From an uncultured archaeon (GTDB lineage: Archaea; Altiarchaeota; Altiarchaeia; IMC4; SCGC-AAA252-I15), in NCBI GenBank assembly GCA_902384455.1, contig CABMCB010000079.1, forward strand, positions 618 through 64,617: DNA of 64,000 nucleotides, read 5' to 3'. The stretch's first letter is position 1, and each line of letters begins with the position of its first letter. The notes under the pieces were generated by a model that ran no database searches, was not told the origin of the DNA, and was given only the letters and a program-made list of their open reading frames with translations. A program made the translations under genes and the position numbers. Positions 1 to 64,000 of the stretch are shown here, piece by piece.

Positions 1-1
1 C

Positions 2-1408
2 GGCACAAGCCTGCCCATAATAAGCAGCGTCATAGGCGTAATACTAGTTTCTCTCTCAATAGGATACTACGTAGGCGGATACCTGGCAGACAAACGGCCG
101 ATAGAAGAAACCCTTTATGCGGTCTGCCTTTTCGCTTCAGTGCTGGTGTCTGCCATCCCATATGTAGCATATCCTGCGTTCACAATTGCGGCTAATGCGT
201 TAAGGAACTATTCGGTCGGCTACTTCGGTTTGGCGTTGGTGTTGACTCTCATTTTGCTGTCCGTTCCGACGGTTCTTTTGGGGATGGTTACGCCGCTTGC
301 GGTAAGGATTGAAAGCAAGAAGATTCCTCAGTTGGGGCGGTCTGCAGGACGCCTTTATGCCCTATCCACATTAGGCAGCCTGCTTGGAACATTCCTCCCG
401 TCGTTTGTGCTAATACCATTCATCGGCTCCACAAAAACATTCGTCCTGTCAGGATTCATGTTGGCGCTGATGTCCTCTCTAGCATGGAGGCGAAAACTAA
501 TCCTGACGCTGCCCGCCTTAATCCTCATAATAATGCTTGTATTGCCCGCGCCAGTCAAAGGGCTGGAAAACGTCATCTACCAAAAAGAAAGCCCCTACTA
601 CCTAATCCAAGTGATAGAACGCAAAGACGGCCTCCGCCTGCTCACTTTGGACGAAGGACTGGGCATACAAAGCGTCTACACGCCCGGAAGCGTGCTGACC
701 GGAGAATACTTCGACGTAGCCCTTATCGGCGGCCTCATGACGTCGCCTGGGAAAGTCCTTCTTTTGGGCACGGGCGGGGGGACGGTGGCGTCGCAATACA
801 ATTTCTTCCATCCTGAAAGCCAGGTGACGACTGTAGACATAGACCCTGAAGTACTCAAGACGGGAGTCAATTATTTCGGGCTCAATGAAAGTCGCGTTCG
901 TCTTGTTGCGCAGGATGCCCGCGCGTTTCTGGCTCTTGACAACGGCACTTACGACGTCATACTTGTTGACGCCTACCGTCCGCCATACATACCTTTCCAT
1001 CTTGCTACCAGAGAATTCTTCCGTGAAGTGCGAGGCCATCTGGCGCCAAACGGAGTGCTTCTAATCAACGTCAACATAGCAACGCCTCAGGATGCCCACT
1101 ACCAAAGCCTGATTGCGACGGTGCAGGCGGAATTCGGGCGGGCCTACGCAATAGAAATGCAAAAAAAATCCGATTGGGTGATGAACCGCGTAATACTCGC
1201 ATCAAACTCGGACATACCGCTTGATATTAAAGGCCTTACCGCTAATGCGTCTGAAGCGCAGGAGCCTCTAAGGGGGCTTTACGTCCGTTACCTCAACGGC
1301 ACCCGTCTTCTTCCGCAGTCTTCCCGAAGCCCTTACACCGACGACAAAGCCCCTATCGAGTGGGACACAGACTACCTTATCATCACCCGCATAGACTCGT
1401 CGTTCTAA
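2..1408 (+). CDS. Spermidine-synthase-family aminopropyltransferase fused to an N-terminal multi-TM domain (5' end outside window)
   Basis: The frame is open from base 2 up to the listed GTG at 140, so the gene is 5'-truncated. The N-terminal half is hydrophobic. The C-terminal half has class-I SAM-fold motifs LLLGTGGGTVASQY, TTVDIDPEVL and YDVILVDAY, typical of spermidine synthases. Confidence 0.7.
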   Translation, partial: GTSLPIISSVIGVILVSLSIGYYVGGYLADKRPIEETLYAVCLFASVLVSAIPYVAYPAFTIAANALRNYSVGYFGLALVLTLILLSVPTVLLGMVTPLAVRIESKKIPQLGRSAGRLYALSTLGSLLGTFLPSFVLIPFIGSTKTFVLSGFMLALMSSLAWRRKLILTLPALILIIMLVLPAPVKGLENVIYQKESPYYLIQVIERKDGLRLLTLDEGLGIQSVYTPGSVLTGEYFDVALIGGLMTSPGKVLLLGTGGGTVASQYNFFHPESQVTTVDIDPEVLKTGVNYFGLNESRVRLVAQDARAFLALDNGTYDVILVDAYRPPYIPFHLATREFFREVRGHLAPNGVLLINVNIATPQDAHYQSLIATVQAEFGRAYAIEMQKKSDWVMNRVILASNSDIPLDIKGLTANASEAQEPLRGLYVRYLNGTRLLPQSSRSPYTDDKAPIEWDTDYLIITRIDSSF

Positions 1409-1409
1409 C

Positions 1410-2084
1410 CTAGACTGTAAGCAAGAACAAACGCAGGAAATAAAATCCGGAAACAAAAAGGAACGCGGCCGAAGCAAATTCTATCGTCCTCCGGTTTTTC
1501 TTAAGCGCATTGAATGAGGCGATGGCAGCTCCGCTTAGCCACCCCAAAAGTAGGAGCGGCGCTCCGAAAGTCAATGAGAATACTGAAAGTAGAACCACTC
1601 CTTCCGCGATGCTTCTGCTGTCTGCAAGAGCCGGCAGTATGCCTGTAACCAGAAAGGGGGCTGAGCACGGAGTGACCGTCGCCCCAAAAGCAAAACCTGA
1701 TAAAAGCGCCCCAAAATACCCGCCTGCTTTAACATCCTTGATAAAGCCAAACGTCGGCAAGTCAATTCCTCCTCTAACCGTCCTGTACGCAAGAAACCAA
1801 ACCATAAGGGCGCCAAAAAGAAGGAAATTACCCCTCCACTCCTCAACGGCCTCAACCAGTCCCAGCCCGAAAAAAGCCGCAGTAGCGCCCAAAATTAGGT
1901 ACAAGACGAAATAGACGCTCATAAGTCCTAAAGTGAAAAATAAGCTAACCCACCGTGGGTCCTCTTTGCTTCGCGTAAGATGGTTCAAAAGTACGGGGTA
2001 CAAAGGAAGAGTGCACCCGGAAACACCCGCAAAAAGGCCTGACGCAGCGGCGACAACGACGTCCTCAATCATACAACCAAGCAC
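1410..2084 (-). CDS. ccdA: CcdA/DsbD-family transmembrane thiol:disulfide electron transporter
   Basis: Polytopic membrane protein with the two hallmark membrane-embedded cysteines, in the CTLPLYP and TPCSAPF motifs. Confidence 0.7.
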   Translation of the reverse strand: MLGCMIEDVVVAAASGLFAGVSGCTLPLYPVLLNHLTRSKEDPRWVSLFFTLGLMSVYFVLYLILGATAAFFGLGLVEAVEEWRGNFLLFGALMVWFLAYRTVRGGIDLPTFGFIKDVKAGGYFGALLSGFAFGATVTPCSAPFLVTGILPALADSRSIAEGVVLLSVFSLTFGAPLLLLGWLSGAAIASFNALKKNRRTIEFASAAFLFVSGFYFLRLFLLTV

Positions 2085-2989
2085 CTCCCGCCGGAAACAG
2101 ACGAAACCCTATTTTCCATAGCCGACTGAGGCATAAACCCGTCGGAGACGTACCGGCCTTGGGGCCCCTCAAACACCAAAACGGGCGTGTCGACTGTGGA
2201 TTGGTCCGGGTAAAGCTGCTTTACTTCATCCCGAGGCGCATCGTTGATTATGGAAAGAAGCTCGTATGCGACGCAATCGCGGTTTCTTGCCGCAATCGCG
2301 GCCGCCCACGGCTTCATCCTCATGCAGTTGGGGCAGTTGGGTCTGTCGTAGAAGATGAATACGACTTTGCCTTCCTTGATGAGTTCCTGCCTTTCCGCCT
2401 CGGTCCGGTGCACTTTTACGGCGGGGGATAAGCCGTATTGGATGGGGTAGACGCTTATTGTGGTTGAGGCGGACGCGTGCCCTGTTTTTTCCGCTGTGAT
2501 TGTGTGGTTTCCTCCGGCTGCGTCGCTGAGGATTGTTTCTCCCTGGTCGTCTGTGGCTTCAATGGGCGTTCCGTCGACTGTTACTTGCGCGCCGGAAACG
2601 AATTTGTTTCCTGCAACAACTGTGATGCGCACGTCGTCTCCCCTGTATAGTGGGTCGCCTGAAATTTCTATCCTGAGGGGTTGGCCTAATGTTTCGTCGT
2701 TTGTTGTTGATGTGGAGGGTGGGGGTTGGTTTGTGGTCGTCGTTGATGTTTGTGTGGTTAGGTTAAATGAGGATGTTGTTTGGTTTTGTGGGGTTCCGGT
2801 GTTGTTGGTTGGGGCGGCAATGGTGGTCGTTGTGTAATACGATTCGTTTATTGGCGAAGCGGGATGTGAGGCGCTTGTGTTTGAGGGTGCATTTGCGGGT
2901 GCAAGAAGGTAGACCATCGAGCCCAGAACGATGGCGACGCCTGCGAGGAAGGCGAACAAAAGCAGGAGGATGACGTACTGGATACGCAT
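2069..2989 (-). CDS. Membrane-anchored extracytoplasmic thioredoxin-fold protein (CPNC) with a Thr-rich stalk
   Basis: N-terminal TM helix, S/T-rich linker (TTQTSTTTTNQPPPSTSTT) and a beta-rich middle domain. The C-terminal segment FIFYDRPNCPNCMRMKPW carries a CxxC thioredoxin-like motif. It overlaps the ccdA start by 16 nt. Confidence 0.6.
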   Translation of the reverse strand: MRIQYVILLLLFAFLAGVAIVLGSMVYLLAPANAPSNTSASHPASPINESYYTTTTIAAPTNNTGTPQNQTTSSFNLTTQTSTTTTNQPPPSTSTTNDETLGQPLRIEISGDPLYRGDDVRITVVAGNKFVSGAQVTVDGTPIEATDDQGETILSDAAGGNHTITAEKTGHASASTTISVYPIQYGLSPAVKVHRTEAERQELIKEGKVVFIFYDRPNCPNCMRMKPWAAAIAARNRDCVAYELLSIINDAPRDEVKQLYPDQSTVDTPVLVFEGPQGRYVSDGFMPQSAMENRVSSVSGGRCLVV

Positions 2990-3007
2990 AATATAACGTC
3001 GGGTTCA

Positions 3008-3997
3008 CTAGCACCCTAAGGCTTTAGCCTTCGAAAGAAGCATATTGATGTTGCAGTTCACAAGGTAATCAGCGCCGACAACGCAAAGCGGGTAGCCGCG
3101 CGCTGCCGTCCCATACTGCGATTCAACCGCCTCCATGGCGTCAGTGCACTCGTTAGTCGGGTTCTGGCAGTCCACGACGTTGATGTACCTAATCGCCGTC
3201 TTAAAGTAATCCTTCAATCCCTTACAATGCGGGCAAACGTTGTCATTCCTCAAGTAAAGCGTAGTCGAAAGCTTGGAAAGGCACAGAGCATAACGCTCAT
3301 TATCCGGCCTGCACGGCGGACAAGGACCTCCGCAGTCAACGCCCTCCTCGCCCTGATTCTGGAAACTGTCGCTGCAGCTTGGGCACTTTTTGGCGCATGG
3401 CCCTCCGCAGTCAGTTTGAGTTTCGCCTTGGTTTAATAATCCGTCGAAGCACGTCGGGCATTTGGCGCAAGGTCCTCCGCAGTCCACGCCAGTCTCAGCC
3501 TGATTCTGGATTCCGTCACTGCAGGTTGCGCAGGCCGTAGGGCATGGTCCTCCGCAGTCCACGCCTGCTTCTCCCTGATTCTTTATGCTGTCCCAGCAGG
3601 TCGGGCAAGGCGGGCAGACGCCGCCGCAGTCCACCCTGTCTTCATTCTGGTTTTTGATTCCGTCGGTGCAGCTTGCCGCAGGAGCGGTAGTCGTCGTAAA
3701 CCCCGCCTGCACCATACTTGACGTAGTAGTCGTCTTAAGGACAAGAGGCGGAGCCTCGTTGCGGCCGGAAAAAGCCACAAGATAAACTGCGACGCCTGTG
3801 AGAGCGAAAAAAACCAAAAGCAAAACTGCGCCAACGACAACACTCAGAATCAGTCTGGGGGTTATGTAGGAACTAAGAGGCTTCGAAGGCTCATCAGGTT
3901 CAACCTCATCAACGCCAGAATCAGAAGAATCTGAACTCCCCGCAGCCATCAGAAAAACATAGTACAGGCCACTTAAATAGGTTCGGTCAAACAGCAA
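3008..3997 (-). CDS. Membrane-anchored protein with five tandem Cys-rich repeats and a C-terminal CPHC thioredoxin/glutaredoxin-like domain
   Basis: One TM helix (LILSVVVGAVLLLVFFALTGVAVYLVAF), then five copies of C-x-D-[GS]-x-x-N-Q-x-E-x-x-x-D-C-G-G-x-C, then NVCPHCKGLKDYF. Confidence 0.65.
   Translation of the reverse strand: MLFDRTYLSGLYYVFLMAAGSSDSSDSGVDEVEPDEPSKPLSSYITPRLILSVVVGAVLLLVFFALTGVAVYLVAFSGRNEAPPLVLKTTTTSSMVQAGFTTTTAPAASCTDGIKNQNEDRVDCGGVCPPCPTCWDSIKNQGEAGVDCGGPCPTACATCSDGIQNQAETGVDCGGPCAKCPTCFDGLLNQGETQTDCGGPCAKKCPSCSDSFQNQGEEGVDCGGPCPPCRPDNERYALCLSKLSTTLYLRNDNVCPHCKGLKDYFKTAIRYINVVDCQNPTNECTDAMEAVESQYGTAARGYPLCVVGADYLVNCNINMLLSKAKALGC
3311..3670 (-). repeat. Five in-frame tandem ~24-25-codon Cys-rich repeats inside CDS 3008-3997
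   Basis: The repeats are CTDGIKNQNEDRVDCGGVCPPCPT, CWDSIKNQGEAGVDCGGPCPTACAT, CSDGIQNQAETGVDCGGPCAKCPT, CFDGLLNQGETQTDCGGPCAKKCPS and CSDSFQNQGEEGVDCGGPCPPC (aa 110-229). Confidence 0.85.
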
Positions 3998-4038: not shown

Positions 4039-4590
4039 TCAGCAGGAGCGGGTGAAACGCTTCAGAACCCCGTCAACCTTCCCCTTAAGGTCATCAAGAG
4101 AACCATCGTTAACAATCACAGCATCAGCAACAGACTCCAAACCCGCAATACCCAACTCAGTCTCCCTCCTCTCAGACGCCTTAAAATCGTCAAAAGAAAT
4201 AGACGCCTCACCCCGGCTGCCGCGGGAAGAAGCCCTCTTCCACCTCAAATTCTGCGGCGCCGTGACGAAAATAAGGAACCCGCCGACTTCCTTCACCATA
4301 TCCGCCTCAGACTTATACCTGACTCCATCCACAATCACCACCGGCGCATCGTCTTTAGCCACATCCTCCTTTAGCGCCTTAACAAGGACGTCGTCGCCGA
4401 AAGCCCCCCTGAGTGCCGCACCCAAACCTTGAAGGTCCTTCCTGACGATGGGCCGATGAAGCCTTACCAAAACGTCGGACAATACGTCTGAGAACCGGTG
4501 GGTTGAGGCGCTGTAGCGCTCAGACAAGTAAGAGCAGATTTCTCCTTTGCCTGCTGCTATGGGACCCGTGATTCCTACGACTACCATCAC
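4039..4590 (-). CDS. Small P-loop nucleotide/nucleoside kinase (dephospho-CoA-kinase-like / UPF0200-like)
   Basis: N-terminal Walker A GITGPIAAGKGE, a size of 183 aa and a DGVR motif. The specific substrate cannot be called from sequence. Confidence 0.5.
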   Translation of the reverse strand: MMVVVGITGPIAAGKGEICSYLSERYSASTHRFSDVLSDVLVRLHRPIVRKDLQGLGAALRGAFGDDVLVKALKEDVAKDDAPVVIVDGVRYKSEADMVKEVGGFLIFVTAPQNLRWKRASSRGSRGEASISFDDFKASERRETELGIAGLESVADAVIVNDGSLDDLKGKVDGVLKRFTRSC

Positions 4591-4628
4591 AAGAGAATAA
4601 AGCGCCTTTTCTTATAAGATGAAGTTGA

Positions 4629-4728
4629 GCGGGGGCCGGGAGCGCGAATCATACCAGAGTTCCCGTGTGAATCAGCTCTGCGGAATAGGAGGTGCACTCA
4701 GTGGAAGGAGGACCACACCGGACCCCGC
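4629..4728 (+). ncRNA. Candidate ~100-nt structured small RNA of unknown class
   Basis: An 11-bp closing stem pairs GCGGGGGCCGG (4629-4639) with CCGGACCCCGC (4718-4728), with one mismatch. There is an internal 7-bp hairpin, CAGAGUU...AGCUCUG. A TTATAA box sits at 4612-4617 upstream and a T-rich stretch (ttatttt) immediately downstream. The element lies in a 231-nt intergenic gap. Confidence 0.35.
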
Positions 4729-4821
4729 ATATGTTATTTTGCCGGCGGCCTATAAAAAACAGTACCTTATTATATCAAGATATTGTAATTACTACGCAGA
4801 ATCTGCATTTCAGGTGAAAAT

Positions 4822-5235
4822 ATGGCAGGCAAGAAAGTTGACGAAGTAAAGAACGTGAAGCTTGGGCGCTACATACTAATAGACGAAGTGCCCTGCAAAG
4901 TTGTAGGACTCACACACTCCAAACCCGGCAAGCACGGGGGAGCAAAATTCAGGATTGATGCGGTCGGAATATTTGACGGCGGGAAAAGAAGCATAATCAA
5001 GCCGGCAGGCGACAAAATCGAGGTGCCCATGATTGACAAGCGGGGCGCCCAAGTGCTTGCGATAGTCGGAAGCAACGTCCAATTGATGGACTCGGAAACT
5101 TACGACACATTCGAGCTGCCTATGCCGCCGGACGACGTAGAATTGACTTCCCCCATAGCTCAAGGCAAGGAAGTCATCTACATGGAAGTCATGGGCAAAC
5201 GCATGATAATACAGGTTAAAGGCGAAGCAGGCTGA
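4822..5235 (+). CDS. eif5a: Translation initiation factor 5A (aIF5A)
   Basis: Hypusination-site motif THSKPGKHGGAK, a length of 137 aa and a C-terminal OB-like domain. Confidence 0.9.
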   Translation: MAGKKVDEVKNVKLGRYILIDEVPCKVVGLTHSKPGKHGGAKFRIDAVGIFDGGKRSIIKPAGDKIEVPMIDKRGAQVLAIVGSNVQLMDSETYDTFELPMPPDDVELTSPIAQGKEVIYMEVMGKRMIIQVKGEAG

Positions 5236-5338
5236 TTACGGGGGATAGGCGCAGGCAGGCAATTCGCCCCAGCGGCATCCTCAACATACCTTTAAAACTA
5301 ATTCAACAGAATTTTCAAAACATCAAAGAGTGACCAAC

Positions 5339-8011
5339 ATGGCATCCACAAAAACAAAATACGTGTACTTTTTCGGGAACGGCAAAGCCGAAGGCAAAGC
5401 AGACATGAAATCAACCCTCGGAGGAAAAGGAGCCAACCTCGCCGAGATGACCAACATTGGGCTGCCAGTGCCACCGGGGTTCACAATCACCACCGACTGC
5501 TGCAACCTCTACTACGCAAACAACAAAAAATGGGCCCCCGGCCTTGAGCAAGAAGTTGAGGCGAACATAAAGCTTCTGGAAAAAACTACCGGCAAACAGT
5601 TCGGAAGCAAAACAAACCCGCTGCTTGTTTCAGTCAGAAGCGGAGCCAAATTCAGCATGCCCGGGATGATGGACACAGTCCTAAACCTCGGCCTAAACGA
5701 CAACACGGTGGAAGCTCTTGCGTCTGCCACAAAGAATCCGAGGATGGCTTACGACAGTTACCGCCGTTTCATCAACATGTTCGGCGACGTAGTGATGGGC
5801 GTTGCTCACGAGAAGTTTGAGGAGCAGCTTTCTGAGGTAAAGCGTAAGCTTAAGGTGAAGGTTGACACTGAGCTTACAGTCGACGCGCTGAAGAACGTTG
5901 TGGAACGCTACAAGGCGCTGATTCATGAGGAGAAAGGAAGAAGCTTCCCAACCGACCCGCGCGAACAGCTGACTATGTCCATTAACGCCGTATTTGAGAG
6001 CTGGAATACTCCGCGCGCCAAGACTTACCGCAAACTCCACGACATACCCGACAACTTGGGTACTGCGGTGAACGTTCAGTCGATGGTTTTCGGAAACATG
6101 GGCGACGACTCCGGAACAGGAGTCGCCTTCACAAGAAACCCGGCCACCGGAGTCAAAGAGTACTACGGGGAATGCCTGATTAACGCTCAAGGAGAAGACG
6201 TCGTCGCAGGAATACGCACGCCGCTCCCAATCAAGAGCCTTGAGAAAACCATGCCGAAAGCATACAAGCAGCTGCTTCAGGTTTACTCAACACTAGAAAA
6301 ACACTACAAAGACATGCAGGACTTCGAGTTCACAATAGAACACGGCGTCCTATACATGCTCCAGACAAGAAACGGCAAAAGAACAGCGCAAGCCGCAGTG
6401 AAAATCGCCGTAGACATGGAGAAAGAAGGCCTCATAAAAAAGGATGAGGCGGTGCTCAGAGTCGACCCCAACCAGTTGGACAAGCTTTTGCACAAGGGAA
6501 TCGACGTGAACGCCAAACTAGACGTCATAGCCAAAGGACTTCCTGCTTCGCCGGGCGCGGCAGTAGGCAAAGTCGTATTCTCAGCTGACGACGCTTTCGA
6601 GTGGGCTGACAAAGGCGAGAAAGTAATTCTCGTCCGAAACGAAACAAGCCCCGAAGACATCCACGGCATGGCCGCCGCCCAAGGAATACTGACCGCCCGC
6701 GGAGGAATGACAAGCCACGCAGCAGTAGTCGCAAGAGGAATGGGCAAATGCTGTGTTGCCGGCGCCGAAAAAGTCGTAGTTGACGCCAAAGCAAAAAAGT
6801 TCACGGTCGGCCAGTACACCGTCGTCGAAGGCGAAGTCATCGCTCTCAACGGGAACACCGGCGAAGTCATACTAGGAGAAGTGTCGCTTGTAGAACCAAA
6901 GCTCACCGGAGAATTCAAGATACTTATGGGCTGGGCAGACGAAGTCCGGGCACTCAAGGTCCGCACAAACGCAGACACCCCATTCGACTCCAAAGTCGCA
7001 CGCGACTTCGGCGCAGAAGGAGTGGGACTATGCCGCACAGAACACATGTTCTTCGAAGGAGACCGAATCAAAGCAGTCAGAGAAATGATTCTCGCGGACG
7101 ACGAGCCAGGCCGACGCAGAGCCCTATTCAAGCTCCTGCCGATGCAGAGAGGCGACTTCGAAGGCATATTCGAAGTCATGAAAGGCCTGCCAGTCACAAT
7201 CCGCTTGCTTGACCCGCCGCTCCACGAGTTCCTACCTCAAGAAGACAAGGACGTGGAAGATTTAGCCAAAGAAATGAGCGTCTCAGTGCAGAAACTCAAG
7301 GCGAAAGTCAAAAGCCTACACGAACTCAACCCCATGCTCGGACACCGCGGATGCCGCCTCGGCATAACATACCCTGAAATCACGGAAATGCAGGCGCGCG
7401 CAATATTCGAGGCCGCAGCAAACCTGAGGAAGAAAGGCATCACGGTGACGCCTGAAGTCATGGTTCCTTTGGTCGGAGACGTGAAGGAATTTACTCATCA
7501 GAAGGCAATCATCGTCCGCGTTGCTGAGGCCGTCATGAAGGAGCAGAACATTAAAATCGACTACTCTGTGGGAACTATGATTGAGGTTCCTCGCGCCGCA
7601 GTGCTTGCCGATGAAATCGCGAAGGAAGCCGAGTTCTTCAGCTTCGGGACAAACGACCTGACGCAGATGACTTTCGGATTCAGCCGCGACGACGTAGGCA
7701 AATTCATCCCGGAATACATAGAAAAAGGCGTCTACGAGAAAGATCCGTTCCAGGTGTTAGACCGAAAAGGGGTCGGCAAACTCGTAGAGTGGGCAGTACA
7801 AAAAGGCCGAGAGACCCGCCCGACAATCAAGGTCGGAATATGCGGGGAGCACGGCGGAGAACCCAGCAGCGTAGAATTCTGCCACATGGTCGGATTAAAC
7901 TACGTAAGCTGCAGCCCCTACCGCGTCCCAATAGCACGGTTGGCGGCAGCCCACGCCCAACTAAAGTATCCGAGGGCTAAGGCGGCCTCTAAGGCAGAAA
8001 AGAAAAAGTAG
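5339..8011 (+). CDS. ppdK: Pyruvate, phosphate dikinase
   Basis: Full-length match to the PPDK architecture. The phosphohistidine motif is GGMTSHAAVVARGMGKCCV and the PEP-utiliser C-terminal motifs are GLCRTEHMF and FFSFGTNDLTQ. The ORF track starts at GTG 5330; ATG 5339 (MASTKTKYVYFF) fits PPDK N-termini better. Confidence 0.92.
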   Translation: MASTKTKYVYFFGNGKAEGKADMKSTLGGKGANLAEMTNIGLPVPPGFTITTDCCNLYYANNKKWAPGLEQEVEANIKLLEKTTGKQFGSKTNPLLVSVRSGAKFSMPGMMDTVLNLGLNDNTVEALASATKNPRMAYDSYRRFINMFGDVVMGVAHEKFEEQLSEVKRKLKVKVDTELTVDALKNVVERYKALIHEEKGRSFPTDPREQLTMSINAVFESWNTPRAKTYRKLHDIPDNLGTAVNVQSMVFGNMGDDSGTGVAFTRNPATGVKEYYGECLINAQGEDVVAGIRTPLPIKSLEKTMPKAYKQLLQVYSTLEKHYKDMQDFEFTIEHGVLYMLQTRNGKRTAQAAVKIAVDMEKEGLIKKDEAVLRVDPNQLDKLLHKGIDVNAKLDVIAKGLPASPGAAVGKVVFSADDAFEWADKGEKVILVRNETSPEDIHGMAAAQGILTARGGMTSHAAVVARGMGKCCVAGAEKVVVDAKAKKFTVGQYTVVEGEVIALNGNTGEVILGEVSLVEPKLTGEFKILMGWADEVRALKVRTNADTPFDSKVARDFGAEGVGLCRTEHMFFEGDRIKAVREMILADDEPGRRRALFKLLPMQRGDFEGIFEVMKGLPVTIRLLDPPLHEFLPQEDKDVEDLAKEMSVSVQKLKAKVKSLHELNPMLGHRGCRLGITYPEITEMQARAIFEAAANLRKKGITVTPEVMVPLVGDVKEFTHQKAIIVRVAEAVMKEQNIKIDYSVGTMIEVPRAAVLADEIAKEAEFFSFGTNDLTQMTFGFSRDDVGKFIPEYIEKGVYEKDPFQVLDRKGVGKLVEWAVQKGRETRPTIKVGICGEHGGEPSSVEFCHMVGLNYVSCSPYRVPIARLAAAHAQLKYPRAKAASKAEKKK

Positions 8012-15975: not shown

Positions 15976-16078
15976 CCAAGTATAGTCTCGTACACCACAC
16001 TGCACTGCCTTTATTTAGGGGGTGTTTGCGTCTAATAAACTGAAGTTATTAAGCCGCCTTAACCCAAAATTAACCCTA

Positions 16079-17412: not shown

Positions 17413-17415
17413 AGT

Positions 17416-18741: not shown

Positions 18742-18772
18742 CTTTCTTTAACTCTTATCTGAATCCCCTTAA

Positions 18773-44099: not shown

Positions 44100-44201
44100 G
44101 GTACTTGAAGATTCGGAAAGGATTAAAGGATTTTTTTAGACGCCAGTCAATTTAATAATCAAGTTCGACAGAAAAACGTGTTCTGGACAATTAATCAAAA
44201 A

Positions 44202-46449: not shown

Positions 46450-46455
46450 GGTTTA

Positions 46456-51928: not shown

Positions 51929-51988
51929 TTCCTCTATTATATATACGGCGTTTATCCAAAGAATAACAGCATCAAAGCCGGTGAAAAA

Positions 51989-55819: not shown

Positions 55820-55820
55820 A

Positions 55821-56783: not shown

Positions 56784-56811
56784 CCTCGCCAAATACAATA
56801 GGGATACATAA

Positions 56812-58011
56812 ATGACAAAAAAGGCGCATAATACGACCAAACAAATTCTCAAAAAAGCCCTAATAGCAACAATAATCCTCACATTCTACACCCTACAAAC
56901 AAACGCCGTAAGCATAGGCGCAGGCCCAGCAGTACTCAACTTCAACAACATGGTACGCGGCGGATACGCAGAAGACTCAGTCACAGTATCAACAAGCGGA
57001 ACAGAAAACCTAACCGTAGTAATCGAATCCACAGGCCAAATAAAAGACTGGGTCACAGTATCAACCCCCATGCCAATGCCCCTAATGGCAGGCGAAAGAA
57101 AAAACATCAAAATCGTAGTCAGACCCCCAGTAACAGCCTCACCCGGAGAATACTCAGCAATACTATACATAAGAGCAGCACCCACCGCAGGCATAGGAAA
57201 CTCAACCGGCCTAGCACTAGGCGCAGGAGTAGGAATACAAATCAACGTAAACATCACAGGCCGAGAAATCAAAGGATACAGCCTAAAAGCAGTCAACGTC
57301 AAAGACACCGAAGTCACATTCCCCATAGACATCACAACCCTAATTGAAAACACCGGAAACATCCCACTACAACCCACATTCAAAGTCAAAATACTAACAC
57401 CCACCGGAGAAGAAACAACCGCCCAAAAAGAATTCACAGTAGGCACATTCAACCCCGGCATACAAGAAAACTACACATTCACCCTACCCTCCACAGGACT
57501 AGCCGAAGGAAAATACGCGGCCAGCATCGCAATAAAAATAGAAAACAACGAAACCGACCTAGCCAACCTAGGTTTCACCCTACTCCCACCCGGCAGCCTG
57601 CGCCTAAAGGGAGAATTCAAGAGCATAACACTATCCGAAAACACCATAGCACCCCAAAAACCCGTAAAAATCACCGGCATATTCCAAAACACCGGCGAAG
57701 TACCGACAAACGCTCAACTAACAGTTGAAGTATACAAAGGCACAGAACTCATAAAGACAATAGACTCAACAGAAACACGAGTAGACGCAGGAGAAACCCA
57801 ACTACTCGACGTAACATACACCTCAGAACAACCAGGAGACCTAACCATACGAGGCACAATAACATACAGCAAAAAGAAGACGCCAGAAAAAGAAATAACA
57901 CTCATAGTATCCGGAGGCGGATTACCCACCACATACATCGCAATCGGAGCAGCAGTAATAATACTGATAATCGGAGGGGTAGTCTACTACAAACGGAACT
58001 ATGCACTATAA
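56812..58011 (+). CDS. Membrane-anchored surface beta-sandwich protein, family M
   Basis: VSIGAGPAVLNFNNMVRGGYAEDSVTVSTSG N-terminal block, ENTGNIPL, GKYAASI, and a C-terminal TM helix. Confidence 0.8.
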   Translation: MTKKAHNTTKQILKKALIATIILTFYTLQTNAVSIGAGPAVLNFNNMVRGGYAEDSVTVSTSGTENLTVVIESTGQIKDWVTVSTPMPMPLMAGERKNIKIVVRPPVTASPGEYSAILYIRAAPTAGIGNSTGLALGAGVGIQINVNITGREIKGYSLKAVNVKDTEVTFPIDITTLIENTGNIPLQPTFKVKILTPTGEETTAQKEFTVGTFNPGIQENYTFTLPSTGLAEGKYAASIAIKIENNETDLANLGFTLLPPGSLRLKGEFKSITLSENTIAPQKPVKITGIFQNTGEVPTNAQLTVEVYKGTELIKTIDSTETRVDAGETQLLDVTYTSEQPGDLTIRGTITYSKKKTPEKEITLIVSGGGLPTTYIAIGAAVIILIIGGVVYYKRNYAL

Positions 58012-58040
58012 ACAATAATAACAAAAAAAGGGAGAAAACC

Positions 58041-59267
58041 ATGACAAAAAAGAACCTATGCGTTGTAGTCGCCGTGCTAACGGCATTAATGGGATACGCT
58101 TCTGCCGTAAGTCTGGGCGCAGGCCCGGCAGTCGTAGAATTCCCCGAAATGATAAAAGGCGGATACGCCGAACAAGTCATAACGGTATCAACAGCCGGTG
58201 ACGAACCCCTAATCGTCAAATCAGAAGTCACAGGCGAAATCAAAAGCTGGGCGTCAGTAGAAGAAGGAGGCACATTCAAACTCGACCCAGCCGCCCGAAG
58301 AGACGTCAAAATAATGGTAAACCTCCCCATCGACGTCCCCAACGGCAGATACGAAGGAATAATCTACTTCCGCGCAGCACCAGCATCAAGTGCATCAGGC
58401 GAAGGAACAGGACTATCACTCGGCGCAGGAGTAGGAATACGCGTAGGCATAACAGTAAGCGACAAACAAGTAGAAAAATACGAACTACGACAAGTCGGAG
58501 TCAAAGACACAGAAATAGGATTCCCCGCAGAATTCACAGCAACACTAGCAAACACAGGAAACGTCCGCTTAGTCCCAAAAATAACAATCACAATAATGGA
58601 CGAACTAAAAAAGAGAACAATAAAAACATTCGACTACGCTGAAACAGAAATAAAACCAACATCCTCCGAAACAATAACAATAAAAGTCCCAACAAACGGA
58701 ATAGACGTAGGCAAATACACCGCAAAAGTAACAGCAGACAACGGACAAGAACAAGAAGTATTCTTCAACGTACTAGAAAAAGGCACACTAGCACTCAAAG
58801 GAATCCTACGCGAAGTCAAAGCCGAAAAAGTCTGGGTAGAAGAAGGAGAAATGGTCAAAATAGTCGCCACACTCGAAAACACCGGCGAACTACCCATCGA
58901 AGGAGCAATATTCAAAGGAGAAGCATACCTAGTAGACGACGCATACGGAACCAGAAAACTAGTCGGAACATTCGAAAGCGACCAAATGGACGTACCCAAA
59001 GAAAAAACAGTCGAACTATCCAGCTACTACACACCCGCAATAGGCGGCCGCTACGTCATCCGCGGTGAAGTAGCATACGGCGGCAAAAGAACCCAAAGCA
59101 AAGACACCATACTAAACGTAGTGGCAAAGCCGACAAACTTCCTACCCTACGCAGTAATCGTAGGCGTAATAGTAATAGCCATAGTCTACTACCTAACACG
59201 AAAAACCGAAGACGGAAGAACACGCCGCTTCAAAAAGATTTGGGCAGACTACTTAGGGCTAAAATAA
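58041..59267 (+). CDS. Membrane-anchored surface beta-sandwich protein, family M
   Basis: VSLGAGPAVVEFPEMIKGGYAEQVITVSTAG. It is colinear with 32919-34238 throughout (VGKYTAKVTADNGQEQEVFFNVL, LPIEGAIFKGEAYL, GRYVIRGEVAYGG). It has a C-terminal TM helix and basic tail. Confidence 0.8.
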   Translation: MTKKNLCVVVAVLTALMGYASAVSLGAGPAVVEFPEMIKGGYAEQVITVSTAGDEPLIVKSEVTGEIKSWASVEEGGTFKLDPAARRDVKIMVNLPIDVPNGRYEGIIYFRAAPASSASGEGTGLSLGAGVGIRVGITVSDKQVEKYELRQVGVKDTEIGFPAEFTATLANTGNVRLVPKITITIMDELKKRTIKTFDYAETEIKPTSSETITIKVPTNGIDVGKYTAKVTADNGQEQEVFFNVLEKGTLALKGILREVKAEKVWVEEGEMVKIVATLENTGELPIEGAIFKGEAYLVDDAYGTRKLVGTFESDQMDVPKEKTVELSSYYTPAIGGRYVIRGEVAYGGKRTQSKDTILNVVAKPTNFLPYAVIVGVIVIAIVYYLTRKTEDGRTRRFKKIWADYLGLK

Positions 59268-59280
59268 GGAGGACAAAAAA

Positions 59281-60000
59281 ATGATCAAAAAAACCAAAAC
59301 AGGAATCCCCGGAGTGGACGAACTCATAGGCGGAGGCATACCAGACAAAGCAGTCATAATAGTATCAGGATCCCCCGGTATCGGGAAAAGCAACTTCGCA
59401 ATGCAATACATATACAACGGAGCAACAATGTTCAATGAACCCGGCGTATACATAACCGTAGAAGACACACCCGAAAACGTCAAAGCATACGCACAAGAAT
59501 TCGGCTGGGACCTAGACAAACTCGAAAAAGAAAACAAAATAGCAATAGTCGCCCAACCAATATACGGCGACGACAAAGAAATGAAAAGAGGAGGCAAAGA
59601 CCGCAAAGACACCCTATCCGAAACAATAAAAAGAATAGGCGCAAAAAGAGTAGTACTAGACAGCGTAACACTATTCAAATACCTATTCAACGACGACATA
59701 GCACGAAGAATAAACCTCCTAAACTTCATCAAACAAGTAAAAGACTCCGGCTGCACAACAGTAATGGTAGCAGAACAACACGAAAGCTCCCCAAACATAA
59801 CATACCTAGACGAACACTTCCTAGCAGACGGCCTACTACTCCTATTCTGGAGCAGACACCGCGAAAAAGCAGAAAGATGCTTCGTAGCAGTAAAAATGAG
59901 AGGCTGCGAAATCAACTCAGACATGAGGCCCATGAAAATAACCAACAAAGGCGTCATAGTCTACCCAACACAAGTACCATTGACGTTGGCCTCCGACTAA
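59281..60000 (+). CDS. Single-domain KaiC/RecA-superfamily ATPase (COG0467-like)
   Basis: GIPGVDELIGGGIP, Walker A GSPGIGKS and Walker B RVVLDS; 239 aa. Confidence 0.8.
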   Translation: MIKKTKTGIPGVDELIGGGIPDKAVIIVSGSPGIGKSNFAMQYIYNGATMFNEPGVYITVEDTPENVKAYAQEFGWDLDKLEKENKIAIVAQPIYGDDKEMKRGGKDRKDTLSETIKRIGAKRVVLDSVTLFKYLFNDDIARRINLLNFIKQVKDSGCTTVMVAEQHESSPNITYLDEHFLADGLLLLFWSRHREKAERCFVAVKMRGCEINSDMRPMKITNKGVIVYPTQVPLTLASD

Positions 60001-60052
60001 AAGCCAGTAATCCCGTCAACACGGCCGATTCACCGTTACTTTAATCTGAGCG

Positions 60053-60634
60053 ATGCCAGTTACCCCAGTTGGACGGAGTTCAGGGATAGACATAAACTCG
60101 GACCTGCAAGGGGCTCAGATTCTGGTTCTTGTCATACCCGAAGACCAGTATAACGACAAGGTTATGGCAATCCTAAAGAACCTTGCAGAGAGCAACACAA
60201 ACAAAGTCTGCTATGTCTCATTGAATCGGCCGTATTCCTCTCTTAGGAATAATCTTGCGTCTGCGGGGGTGTCAATTAACAGCATATATGTTATTGATGC
60301 TATCACTAAGACTGCGGAGATGGCTGAGAACACGGAGAATGTTGAGTTCATTTCTTCTCCTGATGCGTTGACTGAGTTGTCTCTTGCGGTAAGCAATTCT
60401 TTTGACGTGAAGAAGTTCAATTACTTGTTCTTTGATTCATTGTCGACTCTTCTTGTTTATGAATCGGATAGGGTAGTCACTAAGTTTGTTCATTTTTTGA
60501 TGGCTAAGATTAGGGTTGTAGAAGCTAGGGCTATATTTACTGTCTTGAAAAGGGACGTTGATTCTGTGCTTTTGAAGGACATCAACATGTTCGCGGATAA
60601 GATAGTTGACTTGGAGTACTGGAATCCCAAATGA
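60053..60634 (+). CDS. KaiC-like-fold paralogue lacking Walker A (probable pseudo-ATPase)
   Basis: The length and hydrophobic beta-strand pattern parallel KaiC-like domains (ILVLVIP, VCYVSLNRPY, YLFFDSLSTLL as a Walker-B-like strand), but no GxxxxGK[ST] is present. It is a paralogue of the next gene. Confidence 0.5.
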   Translation: MPVTPVGRSSGIDINSDLQGAQILVLVIPEDQYNDKVMAILKNLAESNTNKVCYVSLNRPYSSLRNNLASAGVSINSIYVIDAITKTAEMAENTENVEFISSPDALTELSLAVSNSFDVKKFNYLFFDSLSTLLVYESDRVVTKFVHFLMAKIRVVEARAIFTVLKRDVDSVLLKDINMFADKIVDLEYWNPK

Positions 60635-61245
60635 AAGCATTAGCTGACGTTAAAAACGAAGTCTCACAGTTGATAGGGAAAGCTGACACTTCGGACTCCT
60701 TCCTTATTGTGGTAAACTCAGGGTATCTGCAGGAGGTTACTGCAGACGTAGTCCGCGAATTCCAGGAAAGAACAACTTATGGGATATATGTCTCTCTTAA
60801 TAGGCCTTATTTCAGCGTGAAGAAGTATTTGGTGGAGCGGGGGGTTGACGTGGAGAGGGTCTTTTTTGTTGATTGTATCACTTCTGCGGCGACAAATGCT
60901 CAGTTTATTAATGACGCTAATGTTTTTTTTGCAAAGCACCCGGAGGATATCCGGCCGGAGGGTAGTATTCTTACGTCGATTAATAGGTTCATTAAGGCTA
61001 CGAGTGGTGAAAAGTTCATTGTGGTGGATGCTTTGAGGACTCTTTTGTTGCATAATGACGTTGAGGAGGTCTCTCAGTTTGTACATCATATTCTATCTCT
61101 CACGCATGGTCATCGCGTTAAGATTGTTTTTCTGACTTTGTGGGAGGAGGATATGGAGGTGATTCAGCGTCTTGGTATGGCGTTTGATGAGATTGCGCTT
61201 GTTGGCAGTGAAGATGGGTATATAGTTCCGCTGGATATCGATTAG
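60631..61245 (+). CDS. KaiC-like-fold paralogue lacking Walker A (probable pseudo-ATPase)
   Basis: It shares FLIVVNS, IYVSLNRPYFS and FIVVDALRTLL with the preceding gene. The ATGA start overlaps the preceding stop. Confidence 0.5.
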   Translation: MKALADVKNEVSQLIGKADTSDSFLIVVNSGYLQEVTADVVREFQERTTYGIYVSLNRPYFSVKKYLVERGVDVERVFFVDCITSAATNAQFINDANVFFAKHPEDIRPEGSILTSINRFIKATSGEKFIVVDALRTLLLHNDVEEVSQFVHHILSLTHGHRVKIVFLTLWEEDMEVIQRLGMAFDEIALVGSEDGYIVPLDID

Positions 61246-61340
61246 CCTTTTTTTATCCCCTTTTTCGTGATTCCTCTCACATAGGGGTTTCGTATTTTCC
61301 TTTTTTTTCTCACTTTTGTGTGAGTGAACATCACAATAAA

Positions 61341-61515
61341 ACACACATCTTATATTTATTATATAGTATATAATTACTATATTTATTAAATTATTTTATA
61401 TTCTACAAATAAAAATTACTTATTTATAACACATATATTATATATAACCAAATAAGAAATTTTTAATTTCGCAAATATTTTCAGATAAACCGTAAAATAT
61501 TCTTTCTTTTTATCG
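61341..61515. other. Near-pure A+T tract 1
   Basis: For example, 61381-61440 contains only 5 G/C in 60 nt, against about 50% GC in the flanking genes. Confidence 0.9.
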
Positions 61516-61852
61516 CTTTAAGGCACTAAATAAACGTTTTTTTAAGCATTGTTAATATATGAACTTCACACCCTGTTTTTCTATACTCGAGGACAGCAAT
61601 ACCCTGCGTTTAGGTTCGTAGGAGATAAATCGCTATATAGTGTCAGATTTTATAACCCGATTATGGGATAAAATCTATTAGAATCTAGTTTAACGCTCTT
61701 TTGCCCATGGGTTTGCTATCTGTATTTACTACTCCATATCATTATGATATACAGAACATATTTTGGTTAATTTTTATTAGATCATGTAAATTTTCTGCCT
61801 TTTTAATCTCTTAAGTTAATAGATTGATAACTATCCTTTTGGGGGATAAACA

Positions 61853-62080
61853 ATGGAAATAACGTCAAAAGATATAGAAAAACTTAAGTTTGTCAAAGAT
61901 TCGATAGACAAAGGAAATGCTACGACTATCGAAAAAAACGAGTGCTTGCAGGCCCTTGACGCAGTTATTTCCCCAAAGTGTGCCATGTGTAGGATGCCTT
62001 TGGGTGAAGGTTATGCCGTAGTAAATGAGCGAAAGTTCCACGAATCCTGCGTAAAGAAGTATTCTGCTGCCCCTAAGTAA
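61853..62080 (+). CDS. Small (75 aa) protein with a C-x2-C...H-x2-C zinc-binding-like motif
   Basis: CAMCRMPLGEGYAVVNERKFHESC. GGGGGAT lies 7 nt upstream of the ATG as a possible RBS. The gene is embedded between the two A+T tracts. Confidence 0.5.
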   Translation: MEITSKDIEKLKFVKDSIDKGNATTIEKNECLQALDAVISPKCAMCRMPLGEGYAVVNERKFHESCVKKYSAAPK

Positions 62081-62232
62081 TAATATATTTCGTTTTTATG
62101 TTTAAATTTTATGTAATAAAATATTTCATATGAATACATACTATATAATACATATAAAAAATATACTAATTTACAAAAATATAAATTTATAATAATTATT
62201 ATATTATATAAATTAAATTTATCTTATGTGGA
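62081..62232. other. Near-pure A+T tract 2
   Basis: For example, 62161-62220 contains only 2 G/C in 60 nt. Confidence 0.9.
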
Positions 62233-62402
62233 TTTTAGGGTGGGAAATGCGCATTAAAAATGTGAGAGATAGACAAAAAGAAAATGTGAGAAGTATATGC
62301 TCGAAAAACAGTCACTATACAACGAAAAATAAATGCGCAAAGAATCTGACAACTGACCACAAAAAGCAATGGTGTTATTAATTCCCTCTCACATATGTTA
62401 CC

Positions 62403-62693: not shown

Positions 62694-62705
62694 GAAACCA
62701 TTAAC

Positions 62706-63053
62706 ATGAAGCAGTTGCTGGTTTTTTCAGTAGTCGCCATTTTTTTTCCTCAAATTGTCGCAGGGGAATGCTTAGTCAACGGAAACGTCACTTGCGACAA
62801 GTTTGCTGAAGATCATCTTGCAAAGGATTTCAACGCCTCGTTCACTGATATGGGAGGCATTGGATTATTGATTGTTTTGCTATCGGTTCTTCTCTCCTTT
62901 ACCGGATTTGCGTTTTGGGTGTGGATGATTGTAGATTGCATAAAAAGAAAGGATTTTAGCGATAAGTTGCTTTGGACGGTCGTGTTACTTCTTTCTGGCT
63001 TTGTCGGAGGACTAATCTATTATTTTACGGTGAAAAAGAAGGATAGGGGATAG
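62706..63053 (+). CDS. Small membrane protein with a PLD-N-terminal-like (PLDc_N) segment
   Basis: Signal peptide, then WVWMIVDCIKRKDFSDKLLWTVVLLLSGFVGGLIYYF, which is typical of the short PLDc_N/cardiolipin-synthase-N family. Confidence 0.5.
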   Translation: MKQLLVFSVVAIFFPQIVAGECLVNGNVTCDKFAEDHLAKDFNASFTDMGGIGLLIVLLSVLLSFTGFAFWVWMIVDCIKRKDFSDKLLWTVVLLLSGFVGGLIYYFTVKKKDRG

Positions 63054-63097
63054 GTTGTTTAGCGGCTTTTTATCTTCCGTCACCCAACCATTTTACT

Positions 63098-64000
63098 GTG
63101 CGAATTATCGGGGTCATCCTATCCATCCTTTCTCTATCCTCCTTATGCGGGGCTGTTCCGTTGGGGCTAGAATTTAATTTCTCTGAACAGATTCCTCTTC
63201 AACTTGCTCTTGCCGCCCCCAACGGAACCAACGAGATTTCAGTTGACTTGAACGTATTTATCGTGTACGGGAGTGGGCTGGATATAATCGAGGCAGGCGT
63301 ACGGGATGGCATCCAGAATAATCTTGTGGTTGTTCAGCCCACTGTATTGACTCAATATTCGAACGGATACAACATTTCGATTAGATCCGTTCGAAAAATA
63401 GAGCTAAACGACAGTTCTGAAACTATTAAACTACTTGACAGCTCTAAAGGAGTTATCCTCTTAGTCGGGGGGCCTGAGCATAACAATGTTTCCAAAGAGT
63501 TCTACCGGAGGGGTTTTATCACTAATGAGTCGGAGTCATATTGGGGACGATTTACTGTTGGGCGAGGAAGAACGGATTCTGGTAATGGCGTCTTGGTTTA
63601 TGCGCATAAGCCGGTTGGGGCTGCGTTAGAGAGGGAGGCGGTTAAGTATTCTCCTTTGAGGGGCCATGTTCCCGACGAGTACATCCCCCTGGTGGCAACT
63701 GGAGTAAGTATCACTCTTTTAGGTCTGAGTGGTGTGCTTAACGGAATATTCAACGTGCTTAAAACTGTTGTGGAGTTTAAGGCGCTGGACGTCGGAAGAG
63801 CGAAGAAGAAGGAGAGAAGAAAGACAATTAAAATTGCGGGAGTTGATCTAAGGGAGGGTTTGGCTGTTTTCGCTGCTTCTTTTATTTTGGGTTTGTCTGT
63901 TTCGTGGACTTTCTTGGGTCCTGGAAGCGGGTTTTTGTTGTTTTTGGCGCTTAATACGGCGGTGAGTTTGTTTTCGGCTATTTCTCATGAGGTTAGTCAC
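63098..64000 (+). CDS. Membrane protein with an extracytoplasmic N-domain and an HExxH motif in a TM helix (possible M50/S2P-like metalloprotease), 3' end outside window
   Basis: This ORF is not in the track because it has no stop. The frame from GTG 63098 runs open to base 64000. It encodes a signal-like VRIIGVILSILSLSSLCG, an ectodomain of about 170 aa, a TM helix, the basic linker GRAKKKERRKTIK and further TM helices. It ends ...LFSAISHEVSH. Confidence 0.4.
   Translation, partial: MRIIGVILSILSLSSLCGAVPLGLEFNFSEQIPLQLALAAPNGTNEISVDLNVFIVYGSGLDIIEAGVRDGIQNNLVVVQPTVLTQYSNGYNISIRSVRKIELNDSSETIKLLDSSKGVILLVGGPEHNNVSKEFYRRGFITNESESYWGRFTVGRGRTDSGNGVLVYAHKPVGAALEREAVKYSPLRGHVPDEYIPLVATGVSITLLGLSGVLNGIFNVLKTVVEFKALDVGRAKKKERRKTIKIAGVDLREGLAVFAASFILGLSVSWTFLGPGSGFLLFLALNTAVSLFSAISHEVSH

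Follow-up and report, generated by a model that had tools for sequence, protein, structure and literature searches.

What decides which strand of a chromosome is rich in G and T when the answer changes repeatedly within single genes? The question is raised by a 64,000-nucleotide stretch of DNA from an uncultured archaeon of the Altiarchaeota (contig CABMCB010000079.1, positions 618 to 64,617; hereafter the window), which makes up nearly all of a 64,864-bp contig and in which synonymous sites alternate, patch by patch, between A+C-rich and G+T-rich composition of the plus strand. The mosaic is a genuine trace of evolution in a single lineage of archaea related to Altiarchaeota, namely a near-saturating strand-asymmetric transition bias whose polarity is set locally. 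The polarity changes are anchored at the palindrome GGCC, and our best reading, to which we give an even chance, is that GGCC sites undergo recurrent incision followed by divergent, transition-prone DNA synthesis.

The skew mosaic at synonymous sites

Composition was measured as K3, that is, (G+T−A−C)/N over plus-strand bases at third codon positions. Whole-gene values ranged from −0.88 to +0.48, and in 40-codon windows inside single Pfam-validated genes (pyruvate phosphate dikinase, PPDK; prephenate dehydrogenase, tyrA; and a TPR-AAA ATPase) K3 ran from −1.0 to +0.9. The four hand counts that first drew attention to the pattern were all reproduced: T18 G12 C7 A3 at 9121-9240, C19 A14 G4 T3 at 9841-9900 plus 12241-12300, and, in tyrA, G11 T9 at 18541-18600 and A11 C7 G2 at 17761-17820. 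Nearly one-fifth (19.8%) of 30-codon windows were at least 87% pure. The corresponding maximum was 0.6% in 101 loci of diverse bacteria and archaea and 0.9% in five Altiarchaeota relatives with syntenic loci, all of which were normal, showing that the mosaic is specific to this lineage.

Windows with at least 87% keto bases numbered 214, against 5.9 expected and a maximum of 33 under within-gene permutation. The keto state was autocorrelated within genes at 9–34 SD over shuffles that preserved the protein sequence and codon usage of each gene (lags of 1–40 codons). A hidden Markov model (HMM) with three or four states was better than a single state by >3000 units of the Bayesian information criterion (BIC), and its Viterbi path divided positions 1-64000, without regard to strand, into 159 segments of A+C-rich, intermediate or G+T-rich synonymous sites with a median length of ~234 bp. 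Shuffles, permutation, HMM and the 106 comparison loci thus all placed the third-position keto skew far above noise, as the original prediction had it. Strong flips of polarity numbered 43 in 64 kb, mostly within intact genes. The G/(A+G) and T/(C+T) tracks at third positions co-varied (r=0.80), which bears out the claim that the G/C and T/A skews flip together. Intergenic skew correlated with the K3 of its flanks (r=0.69), adjacent codons were co-polarised beyond the domain signal (lag-1 autocorrelation 0.15 vs a control maximum of 0.089), and purity correlated negatively with GC3 (rho −0.34). Full-text literature searches gave neither a description of such a pattern nor a published precedent, consistent with the original prediction, whose author knew of no described mechanism for it.

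Most of the patches named by eye were recovered by the HMM. They comprise G+T-rich segments at 2324-3023, 9111-9327, 10557-11316, 18118-18730 and 45676-46846, and A+C-rich segments at 4057-4213, 11928-12627, much of 33471-38513, and 49838-59979. Two patches differed: 1410-2100 is weak at third positions (K3 −0.18) and owes its A+C richness to codon positions 1 and 2, and 47230-47700, described as G+T-rich, is intermediate. The idea of two extreme states did not hold either, as local skew formed a unimodal, broad continuum with intermediate plateaus.

The skew was confined to synonymous sites. Codon positions 1 and 2 were slightly shifted in the expected direction, K1 and K2 remaining mostly within ±0.3 compared with K3 values down to −0.88. 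In A/C patches of plus-strand genes, two-fold sites ended in C rather than T at 958:19 and in A rather than G at 615:38, four-fold sites were A57, C37, G4 and T1.4%, and leucine and isoleucine were written as CTA/CTC and ATA/ATC. Minus-strand genes in the same patches carried the exact complementary codon endings, and the skew is therefore a property of the DNA strand and not of mRNA or tRNA selection. Very pure windows of the two kinds mirrored each other, with T49.5 G41.8 C7.3 A1.5% in G/T windows and A56.3 C36.0 G5.5 T2.2% in A/C windows. Amino-acid usage followed: Thr, Ile and Asn were raised where the coding strand is A/C-rich, and Val, Leu, Arg and Met where it is G/T-rich (Thr 9.1 vs 4.2%, Ile 7.6 vs 4.0%, Val 6.4 vs 10.5%, Leu 7.1 vs 11.8%). 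Open reading frames (ORFs) were intact, and Pfam E-values reached 1e-121 among the most skewed genes. The synonymous confinement, intact ORFs and amino-acid shift together therefore mark a selection-filtered evolutionary signature rather than an artefact of chemistry or assembly. Processes that are blind to codons (base conversion, errors of base calling, a chimeric consensus) cannot give this pattern.

On balance, A→G and C→T changes accumulate on one strand, and hence G→A and T→C on the other. From the equilibrium frequencies, the asymmetry of rates would be at least 10–16-fold. Residual third-position G on the A+C-rich strand was kept most before C (0.33, vs 0.13 before A or G), and equivalently, C on the G+T-rich strand was least converted after G and most after T or C. 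This is a weak sequence-context signature of the process.

Polarity bore no relation to gene strand or to position along the gene, so that the patches disregard genes, as had been stated. The coding strand was A+C-rich in some genes and G+T-rich in others, and most segment boundaries lay within genes. A transcription-linked polarity was not supported, given no dependence on gene strand and no trend along genes. Patch state had no systematic tie to protein divergence after general site variability was accounted for, and the direction of amino-acid replacement relative to the relatives was weakly biased (1.16 vs 0.91). Compared with L022, one of these relatives, four-fold sites were saturated, with the same base at 27–31% and purine/pyrimidine class agreement of ~0.5, and ancestral states are therefore unreadable. 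Smooth ramps were not preferred by BIC over two or three steps.

GGCC sites and the polarity of the mosaic

An oriented step test compared K3 in the 150 bp downstream with K3 in the 150 bp upstream of each occurrence of a word. Among 4213 oriented 4-6-mers, the top words all contained GGCC (z up to 9.3), and all others had |z| ≤3.6. At GGCC itself the step (right minus left) was +0.222 (z=8.8, n=194), with 71% of sites positive; over 2000 random-site trials the SD was 0.023 and the largest value 0.074. None of the remaining 15 palindromic tetranucleotides, among them CCGG, GCGC and CGCG with identical composition, went beyond |z| 1.5, and one-base variants of GGCC had zero effect. Of the palindromic hexamers, only AGGCCT and CGGCCG stood out. 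The step was −0.001 at 6805 GGCC sites in control loci and +0.024 at 261 GGCC sites in the five Altiarchaeota relatives. Within the window each of the three codon phases, either gene strand and each of four regions showed it, and the purine (A/G) and pyrimidine (C/T) tracks both shifted across the site. The patchy strand-specific mutational or repair process that had been listed among the possible causes is thus supported, and GGCC sites give it a concrete anchor.

The mean profile stepped up sharply at GGCC, from values between −0.39 and −0.43 on the left to −0.20 on the right, and returned to a baseline of about −0.3 over ~500 bp per side. On each side, the strand going 5'→3' outward is the one enriched in G+T. 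An antisymmetric exponential kernel placed at GGCC (lambda 400 bp) correlated with smoothed K3 at r=0.34 (circular-shift null SD 0.048), compared with −0.11 to +0.06 for the same kernel on other palindromes. The density of GGCC was 7.56/kb in up-flip intervals (A/C→G/T from left to right), 1.57/kb in down-flip intervals and 3.30/kb overall, and 18–19 of the 21 strong up-flips contained GGCC when the segment list was matched by eye to the site list. Plain k-mer enrichment at flips was not significant, AGGCCG already being the top word. Up-flips had a median width of 123 bp vs 261 bp for down-flips (p=0.029), which agrees with the prediction of an anchor at GGCC that up-flips should be the sharper.

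Is GGCC a cause of the polarity or a consequence of it? The motif was 21% under-represented in the window (211 sites vs 268±15 in dinucleotide-preserving shuffles), an avoidance absent in the relative L022 (79 vs 84±9). At an A/C|G/T junction, mutation pushes G towards A to the left and C towards T to the right, and erosion of GGCC is therefore expected there, with the G/T|A/C junction favouring both halves of the motif. GGCC is concentrated where erosion is expected and is under-represented, which argues that GGCC drives polarity and does not result from it.

In the same matching by eye, many pure A/C segments stopped within 30 bp of a GGCC site (for example 15948/15953, 49358/49362 and 52981/52976), and short G/T islets started just to the right of one (22798 after 22784, 49370 after 49362). 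A pure A/C segment of 240 codons with 11% keto bases (15231-15956) stops at GGCC 15953, and another in plus-strand sequence (52306-52981) at GGCC 52976. In the topoisomerase gene (plus strand, 49061-49412), a pure A/C segment at 49061-49358 stops at a pair of GGCC sites (49362 and 49375) and is followed by a 15-codon G/T islet at 49370-49412. Further pure A/C segments end at 43556 (GGCC at 43545), 34611 (34597), 54319 (54296), 53197 (53186), 12015 (12030), 7084 (7109) and 30587 (30608). A sharp A/C→G/T flip of 48 bp in the GHMP-kinase gene (16204-16258) contains a GGCC cluster at 16210, 16226 and 16255, and in the plus-strand TPR-AAA ATPase gene (flip at 20456-20537) GGCC 20511 directly precedes the G/T run. 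A 1.2-kb G+T island spanning two minus-strand genes (45676-46846) begins right of GGCC 45635 and 45685.

Single genes illustrate the amplitude. Along the intact, conserved PPDK gene (5330-8011, plus strand), whose product shares 73–75% identity with Altiarchaeota orthologues, K3 at third positions swings between −0.8 and +0.6. In tyrA (17416-18741, minus strand), K3 rises from −0.9 near 17776 to +0.9 near 18500, with GGCC sites along the climb at 17838, 17985, 18084, 18226, 18348, 18371 and 18474; two- or three-step models fit this climb no worse than a linear ramp. A run of 165 codons with 95% A/C third positions (12135-12627, plus strand) lies inside the gene for a 1789-aa protein, and the protein that it encodes is ordinary and diverse, with Leu as CTA/CTC, Ile as ATA/ATC and Arg as AGA/CGA/CGC.

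The longest A+C block (49838-59979) is mostly near-pure at third positions with short intermediate stretches. Its genes, all on the plus strand, have K3 of −0.58 to −0.88. To its right lies the largest A/C→G/T flip (59982-60241, K3 −0.85 to +0.4), between co-oriented KaiC-family genes, with GGCC at 60023-60026 and 60228-60231 inside a 15-nt inverted repeat. Third positions of the plus-strand genes right of this flip (60223-61245, two DUF7504/KaiC-like genes) are G+T-rich, with 77–84% keto bases. Three KaiC-superfamily genes, one KaiC-like and two DUF7504, stand in a row on the same strand at 59281-61245, and it is between the first two of them that the contig reverses polarity most strongly.

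Genes of the window and its relatives

The gene set of the window was archaeal and chromosomal in type. It included genes for PPDK, tyrA, aminotransferases, glycosyltransferases and adenylate kinase, as well as eIF5A, ribosomal protein P1, a Rad50/SMC-like ATPase, NurA, a type IA topoisomerase, PAC2 and KaiC-like ATPases. The tRNA and Rfam scans of the window found none. Amino-acid composition pointed to a mesophile (IVYWREL estimate ~30 °C). The closest homologues of PPDK belonged to Candidatus Altiarchaeota metagenome-assembled genomes at 70–75% identity, with no relative closer than 75% in the databases searched (~5.8 billion clustered proteins), and exact-protein look-ups of window proteins gave zero matches. 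The PPDK of the window was equidistant from two relatives and not on a long branch.

Gene order around PPDK was common to the window and three relatives (L022, L103 and L104). A block of GHMP kinase, UPF0047, tyrA, (glycosyltransferase) and TPR-AAA ATPase genes (16022-21566) is inverted relative to PPDK when compared with L022 (13288-18762), and small inversions have therefore occurred since the two lineages split. In all three relatives, a gene of the dCMP-deaminase family (150–158 aa) directly precedes that of the AAA_18 nucleotide kinase, the two overlapping in L103 and L104, and eIF5A is separated from PPDK by a pyruvate kinase gene (L022 1839-8194, L103 4940-9898, L104 6796-9896). At 4039-5329 of the window the kinase, eIF5A and PPDK are kept and the deaminase-family and pyruvate kinase genes are gone from the locus; tblastn found neither in the whole 64 kb. 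As a speculation, the missing deaminase or pyruvate kinase could alter dNTP supply and so bear on the mutation bias.

Four tandem paralogues of ~330 aa that lack a Pfam match lie at 40992-42011, 42094-43077, ~43176-44099 and 44178-45179. Copies 2 and 4 share 81% protein identity and the others 43–49%. The polarity tracks of the old pairs in this array (40992-45179) were uncorrelated, and homologous protein position therefore does not fix polarity; the recent pair, copies 2 and 4, shared its pattern (r=0.78), a comparison that is not decisive.

A 1276-aa protein (51989-55819) had no Pfam domain and only a self-match among the ~5.8 billion clustered proteins, and the adjoining gene at 55821-56783 had no Pfam match. 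A 329-aa ORF without a family match (3008-3997, minus strand) holds three copies of a 92-nt repeat (62–77% identity, spacing 147 and 75 nt) at 3321-3634, which give an internally repetitive protein region. A 749-aa SMC/Rad50-type ATPase (29900-32149, minus strand) scored highest in PADLOC against Lamassu LmuB models (E=5e-28) and could be an archaeal Rad50 or a defence ATPase; NurA (50873-51928) is not adjacent to it but 19 kb away.

Spurious antisense ORFs of 174–232 aa overlie real plus-strand genes in the A/C block (56153-56728, 56886-57461, 59259-59957, 50084-50644 and 51088-51612, all minus strand), because the complementary strand is G+T-rich at third positions and hence has few stop codons. 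Two same-strand ORFs overlap in different frames at 37305-38438 and 37328-38446. Right of the KaiC-superfamily genes, a stretch at 61246-62402 has 29% G+C, AT-rich direct repeats (61411-61444/62177-62210 and 61241-61270/61294-61323) and no Rfam match. Its composition is origin-like, but the polarity flip is 1.2 kb to its left, on the far side of two G+T-rich genes.

Mechanism, alternatives and meaning

If GGCC drives the polarity, how might it do so? We propose that GGCC may be nicked or cut repeatedly in the cell's own chromosome, candidate cutters being a restriction or nicking enzyme specific for GGCC, or a nuclease that repairs damaged methyl-cytosine within the motif. DNA synthesis would then start at GGCC and run outward on both strands. 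In a first model, this would be nick- or break-initiated repair synthesis in which the new strand gathers G·T-wobble misincorporations (dGTP opposite T, dTTP opposite G). In a second, synthesis would displace the old strand, which would be deaminated while single-stranded, as in mitochondria. In a third, 3'→5' excision would leave gaps whose exposed template strand is deaminated. All three fit the geometry of a bidirectional start of synthesis. Purifying selection would clear non-synonymous changes, so that in the long run synonymous sites alone would reach 90–98% purity and amino-acid usage would shift modestly. The plus strand would jump from A+C to G+T at GGCC and drift back before the next site, giving sub-genic patches with sharp up-flips and broader down-flips. 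GGCC is known as the site of the SuaI/M.SuaI restriction-modification system in Sulfolobus, modified as GG(m4C)C (PMC5809426), and self-restriction at CCGG starts patchwork gene conversion in Neisseria (PMC13321361).

Several points weigh against recurrent incision. Pfam, NCBIfam and PADLOC searches of the 64 kb gave no GGCC-recognising enzyme, methyltransferase, Vsr-like nuclease or error-prone polymerase, and the unannotated ORFs of the window held no restriction-modification, defence or nuclease genes; the incision step is purely what we infer. The GGCC kernel accounts for only ~12% of the variance of smoothed K3, two strong up-flips (22450-22495 and 27652-27697) lack GGCC, and the K3 steps at GGCC sites within the 10-kb A/C block are small. 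That the plus strand is A+C-rich overall calls for a separate cause. K3 slopes down from −0.2 at 20 kb until it reaches −0.85 at 58 kb, then reverses at 60 kb, and this long-range plus-strand A+C bias (~20–60 kb) is a second component, superimposed on the mosaic and outside what GGCC explains. The stronger effect at MGGCCK is confounded with polarity itself. GGCC was found by a post-hoc scan, though far past any multiple-testing threshold, and the evidence comes from one contig of one organism. Heat-driven deamination found no support as a driver, since the mesophile-like composition (~30 °C) does not make it an obvious one.

Comparison with known systems shows which features are familiar and which are not. 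Replication-associated asymmetry likewise combines an excess of G and T on one strand at synonymous sites, whatever the gene orientation, and drags amino-acid usage along; the polarity at GGCC is that of a bidirectional origin, the outward 5'→3' strand being G+T-rich. It differs in that its domains span hundreds of kb (10^5–10^6 bp) and its skew amounts to a few per cent, whereas here the domains measure 0.05–2 kb, flip inside genes and reach 90–98% purity, and the anchor is a 4-bp palindrome every ~300 bp and not an Orc/ORB origin. The likeness to leading/lagging skew that the original prediction pointed out thus extends to mutational signature and polarity but not to scale. Vertebrate mitochondria have a G+T-rich H strand and an A+C-rich L strand, which is attributed to deamination of C and A on the displaced single strand. 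They resemble the window in the four-fold end state, with A and C abundant and G and T rare on one strand, and in the grading with distance or exposure. In the window, however, T and not G is rarest, sites are purer, and hundreds of anchors of both polarities on a cellular chromosome take the place of one origin pair. Of strand-displacement replication itself, the decay of the effect over ~0.5 kb from GGCC is the one feature compatible with it.

Nick-directed repair of the Vsr/MutH type offers a likeness in its short palindromic methyltransferase or restriction motif, GGCC being such a target in Sulfolobus and a candidate one here. There the motif directs incision and the incised strand is resynthesised 5'→3' starting at the nick, the geometry that we infer here, and the motif itself is restored, which would explain the persistence of GGCC. 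Vsr repair patches are ~10 nt long, and we know of no Vsr/MutH-type system reported to leave a compositional footprint. Here the reach is ~500 bp per side, synonymous sites are saturated, and the window yielded no gene for Vsr, MutH or a methyltransferase. Clusters of the kataegis type at resected breaks share strand-coordinated C→T-type changes, tracts of 0.1 to a few kb and a polarity switch at the break; they differ in that A→G is here as strong as C→T and that the window records a fixed evolutionary equilibrium rather than somatic clusters. Deaminated 3' tails after 5'→3' resection were rejected as a source: if GGCC is the break, they predict G+T on its left and A+C on its right, and GGCC shows the reverse. 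In pilin antigenic variation of Neisseria gonorrhoeae, which uses CCGG modules, some of the cells cut their own chromosome at a 4-bp palindrome, and the sites mark the borders of patchwork sequence changes (PMC13321361). That system works by gene conversion from silent donors at one locus, whereas the window shows a contig-wide point-mutation bias without a donor.

Among the alternatives to incision at GGCC, the one that survives best, although we think it unlikely, treats GGCC as a marker. Some other stable local determinant of the single-stranded strand would set the polarity, and GGCC would co-vary with it; persistent R-loops, pervasive sense or antisense transcription units, self-reinforcing domains of GC skew and R-loops, and fixed priming sites are candidates. 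A determinant of this kind would suit the ~12% of variance that the GGCC kernel covers, the long blocks and two strong flips that are independent of GGCC, and the continuum of skew with intermediate plateaus. R-loops are similar in size to the 0.1–1 kb scale of the patches. However, polarity is unrelated to gene strand or position in the gene, no other 4-6-mer gives a step, and all four bases of GGCC are needed. Mutation pressure should moreover strip GGCC exactly where it is concentrated, so a passive co-variation is hard to construct.

A recombination mosaic is less probable still, and we give it little credence. In an extreme replication-skewed genome, segments would have been imported from relatives with the opposite orientation, perhaps bounded by restriction at GGCC, and variously ameliorated since. 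The inverted GHMP kinase-tyrA-TPR-AAA block shows that rearrangements occur, a stepped profile with intermediate plateaus fits as well as a ramp does, the patches differ in amino-acid composition, and the longest uniform block holds genes without a detected homologue (the 1276-aa protein) or without a Pfam match (55821-56783). Nevertheless, alleles of opposite polarity would differ at ~25–30% of bases and leave hardly any identical runs for strand exchange. GGCC is enriched at up-flips and depleted at down-flips, an asymmetry that restriction-bounded imports do not predict. No donor-like sequence above 75% identity (PPDK) appeared among the 5.8 billion clustered proteins, and the relatives lack the skew. 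A mosaic of two pure sources was rejected, local skew being unimodal and broad and its lag-1 autocorrelation (~0.24–0.32) far under the ~0.8 estimated for such a mosaic. The earlier suggestion of gene conversion between lineages of opposite orientation thus fares poorly, on the GGCC asymmetry of up- and down-flips, the probable divergence of the alleles and the lack of any relative above 75% in PPDK.

A technical or synthetic artefact, also raised in the original prediction, is very improbable. It might take the form of a bisulfite- or deaminase-type conversion, a miscalling of bases on one strand or a consensus that mixes two populations. In its favour, the contig is a singleton whose proteins are found on one contig only, and nothing comparable occurs in 106 other loci. 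Yet conversion and base-calling errors are codon-blind and the skew is confined to synonymous sites; the ORFs are intact, with strong Pfam matches, and the proteins are 73–75% identical to orthologues with no long branch. The Leu and Arg codon families and amino-acid usage track polarity, so that amino-acid composition has co-evolved with it. Haplotypes differing at every third base would share no k-mers, so an assembler could not merge them, and a GGCC-centred step that decays over 500 bp in every codon phase is not expected from artefacts of these kinds.

Equally improbable is ordinary replication skew with a G+T-rich leading strand and polarity changes from inversions or nearby origins and termini: the mutational signature, the independence of gene orientation, the long 20–60 kb ramp with its abrupt reversal at 60 kb and the AT-rich 1.16-kb non-coding stretch at 61246-62402 would suit it, but it has to face 43 strong flips in 64 kb, mostly inside intact genes, and a magnitude several-fold over that of bacterial and archaeal skew, to which none of the 106 comparison loci comes close. 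The 60-kb flip falls in and around a spacer of 52 bp that separates two genes of the same orientation; neither ORB-like repeats nor an Orc1/Cdc6 gene turned up, and an origin in the AT-rich region would not fit the polarity of the genes that lie between it and the flip.

Recurrent incision at GGCC with divergent synthesis thus remains our preferred account. Strand asymmetry serves to locate origins, enters models of substitution and guides the reading of codon usage, on the assumption that replication and transcription organise it at scales from the gene to the replichore. Here it is organised below the scale of the gene by a 4-bp palindrome, and codon usage within one gene switches between two non-overlapping dialects. 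Such genomes mislead gene finders, through long spurious antisense ORFs, as well as codon-based binning, the detection of horizontal transfer and skew-based prediction of origins. A shade more tentatively than for incision itself, we suggest that each GGCC may be a miniature bidirectional start of mutagenic synthesis, arising from self-restriction, nicking or repair of modified cytosine, which over evolutionary time would rewrite nearly all synonymous sites and part of the proteome as a sawtooth of alternating strand compositions and would make a 4-bp motif the main organiser of base composition and codon usage. If this is true, the window would offer a first evolutionary record of a cell chronically incising its own DNA at a restriction-type site, and it would show how faithful the ensuing repair synthesis is and in which direction it runs. 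A direct link would then join restriction-modification or the repair of methyl-cytosine to codon usage and to the composition of genome and proteins, and engineered targeted mutators would have a natural counterpart.

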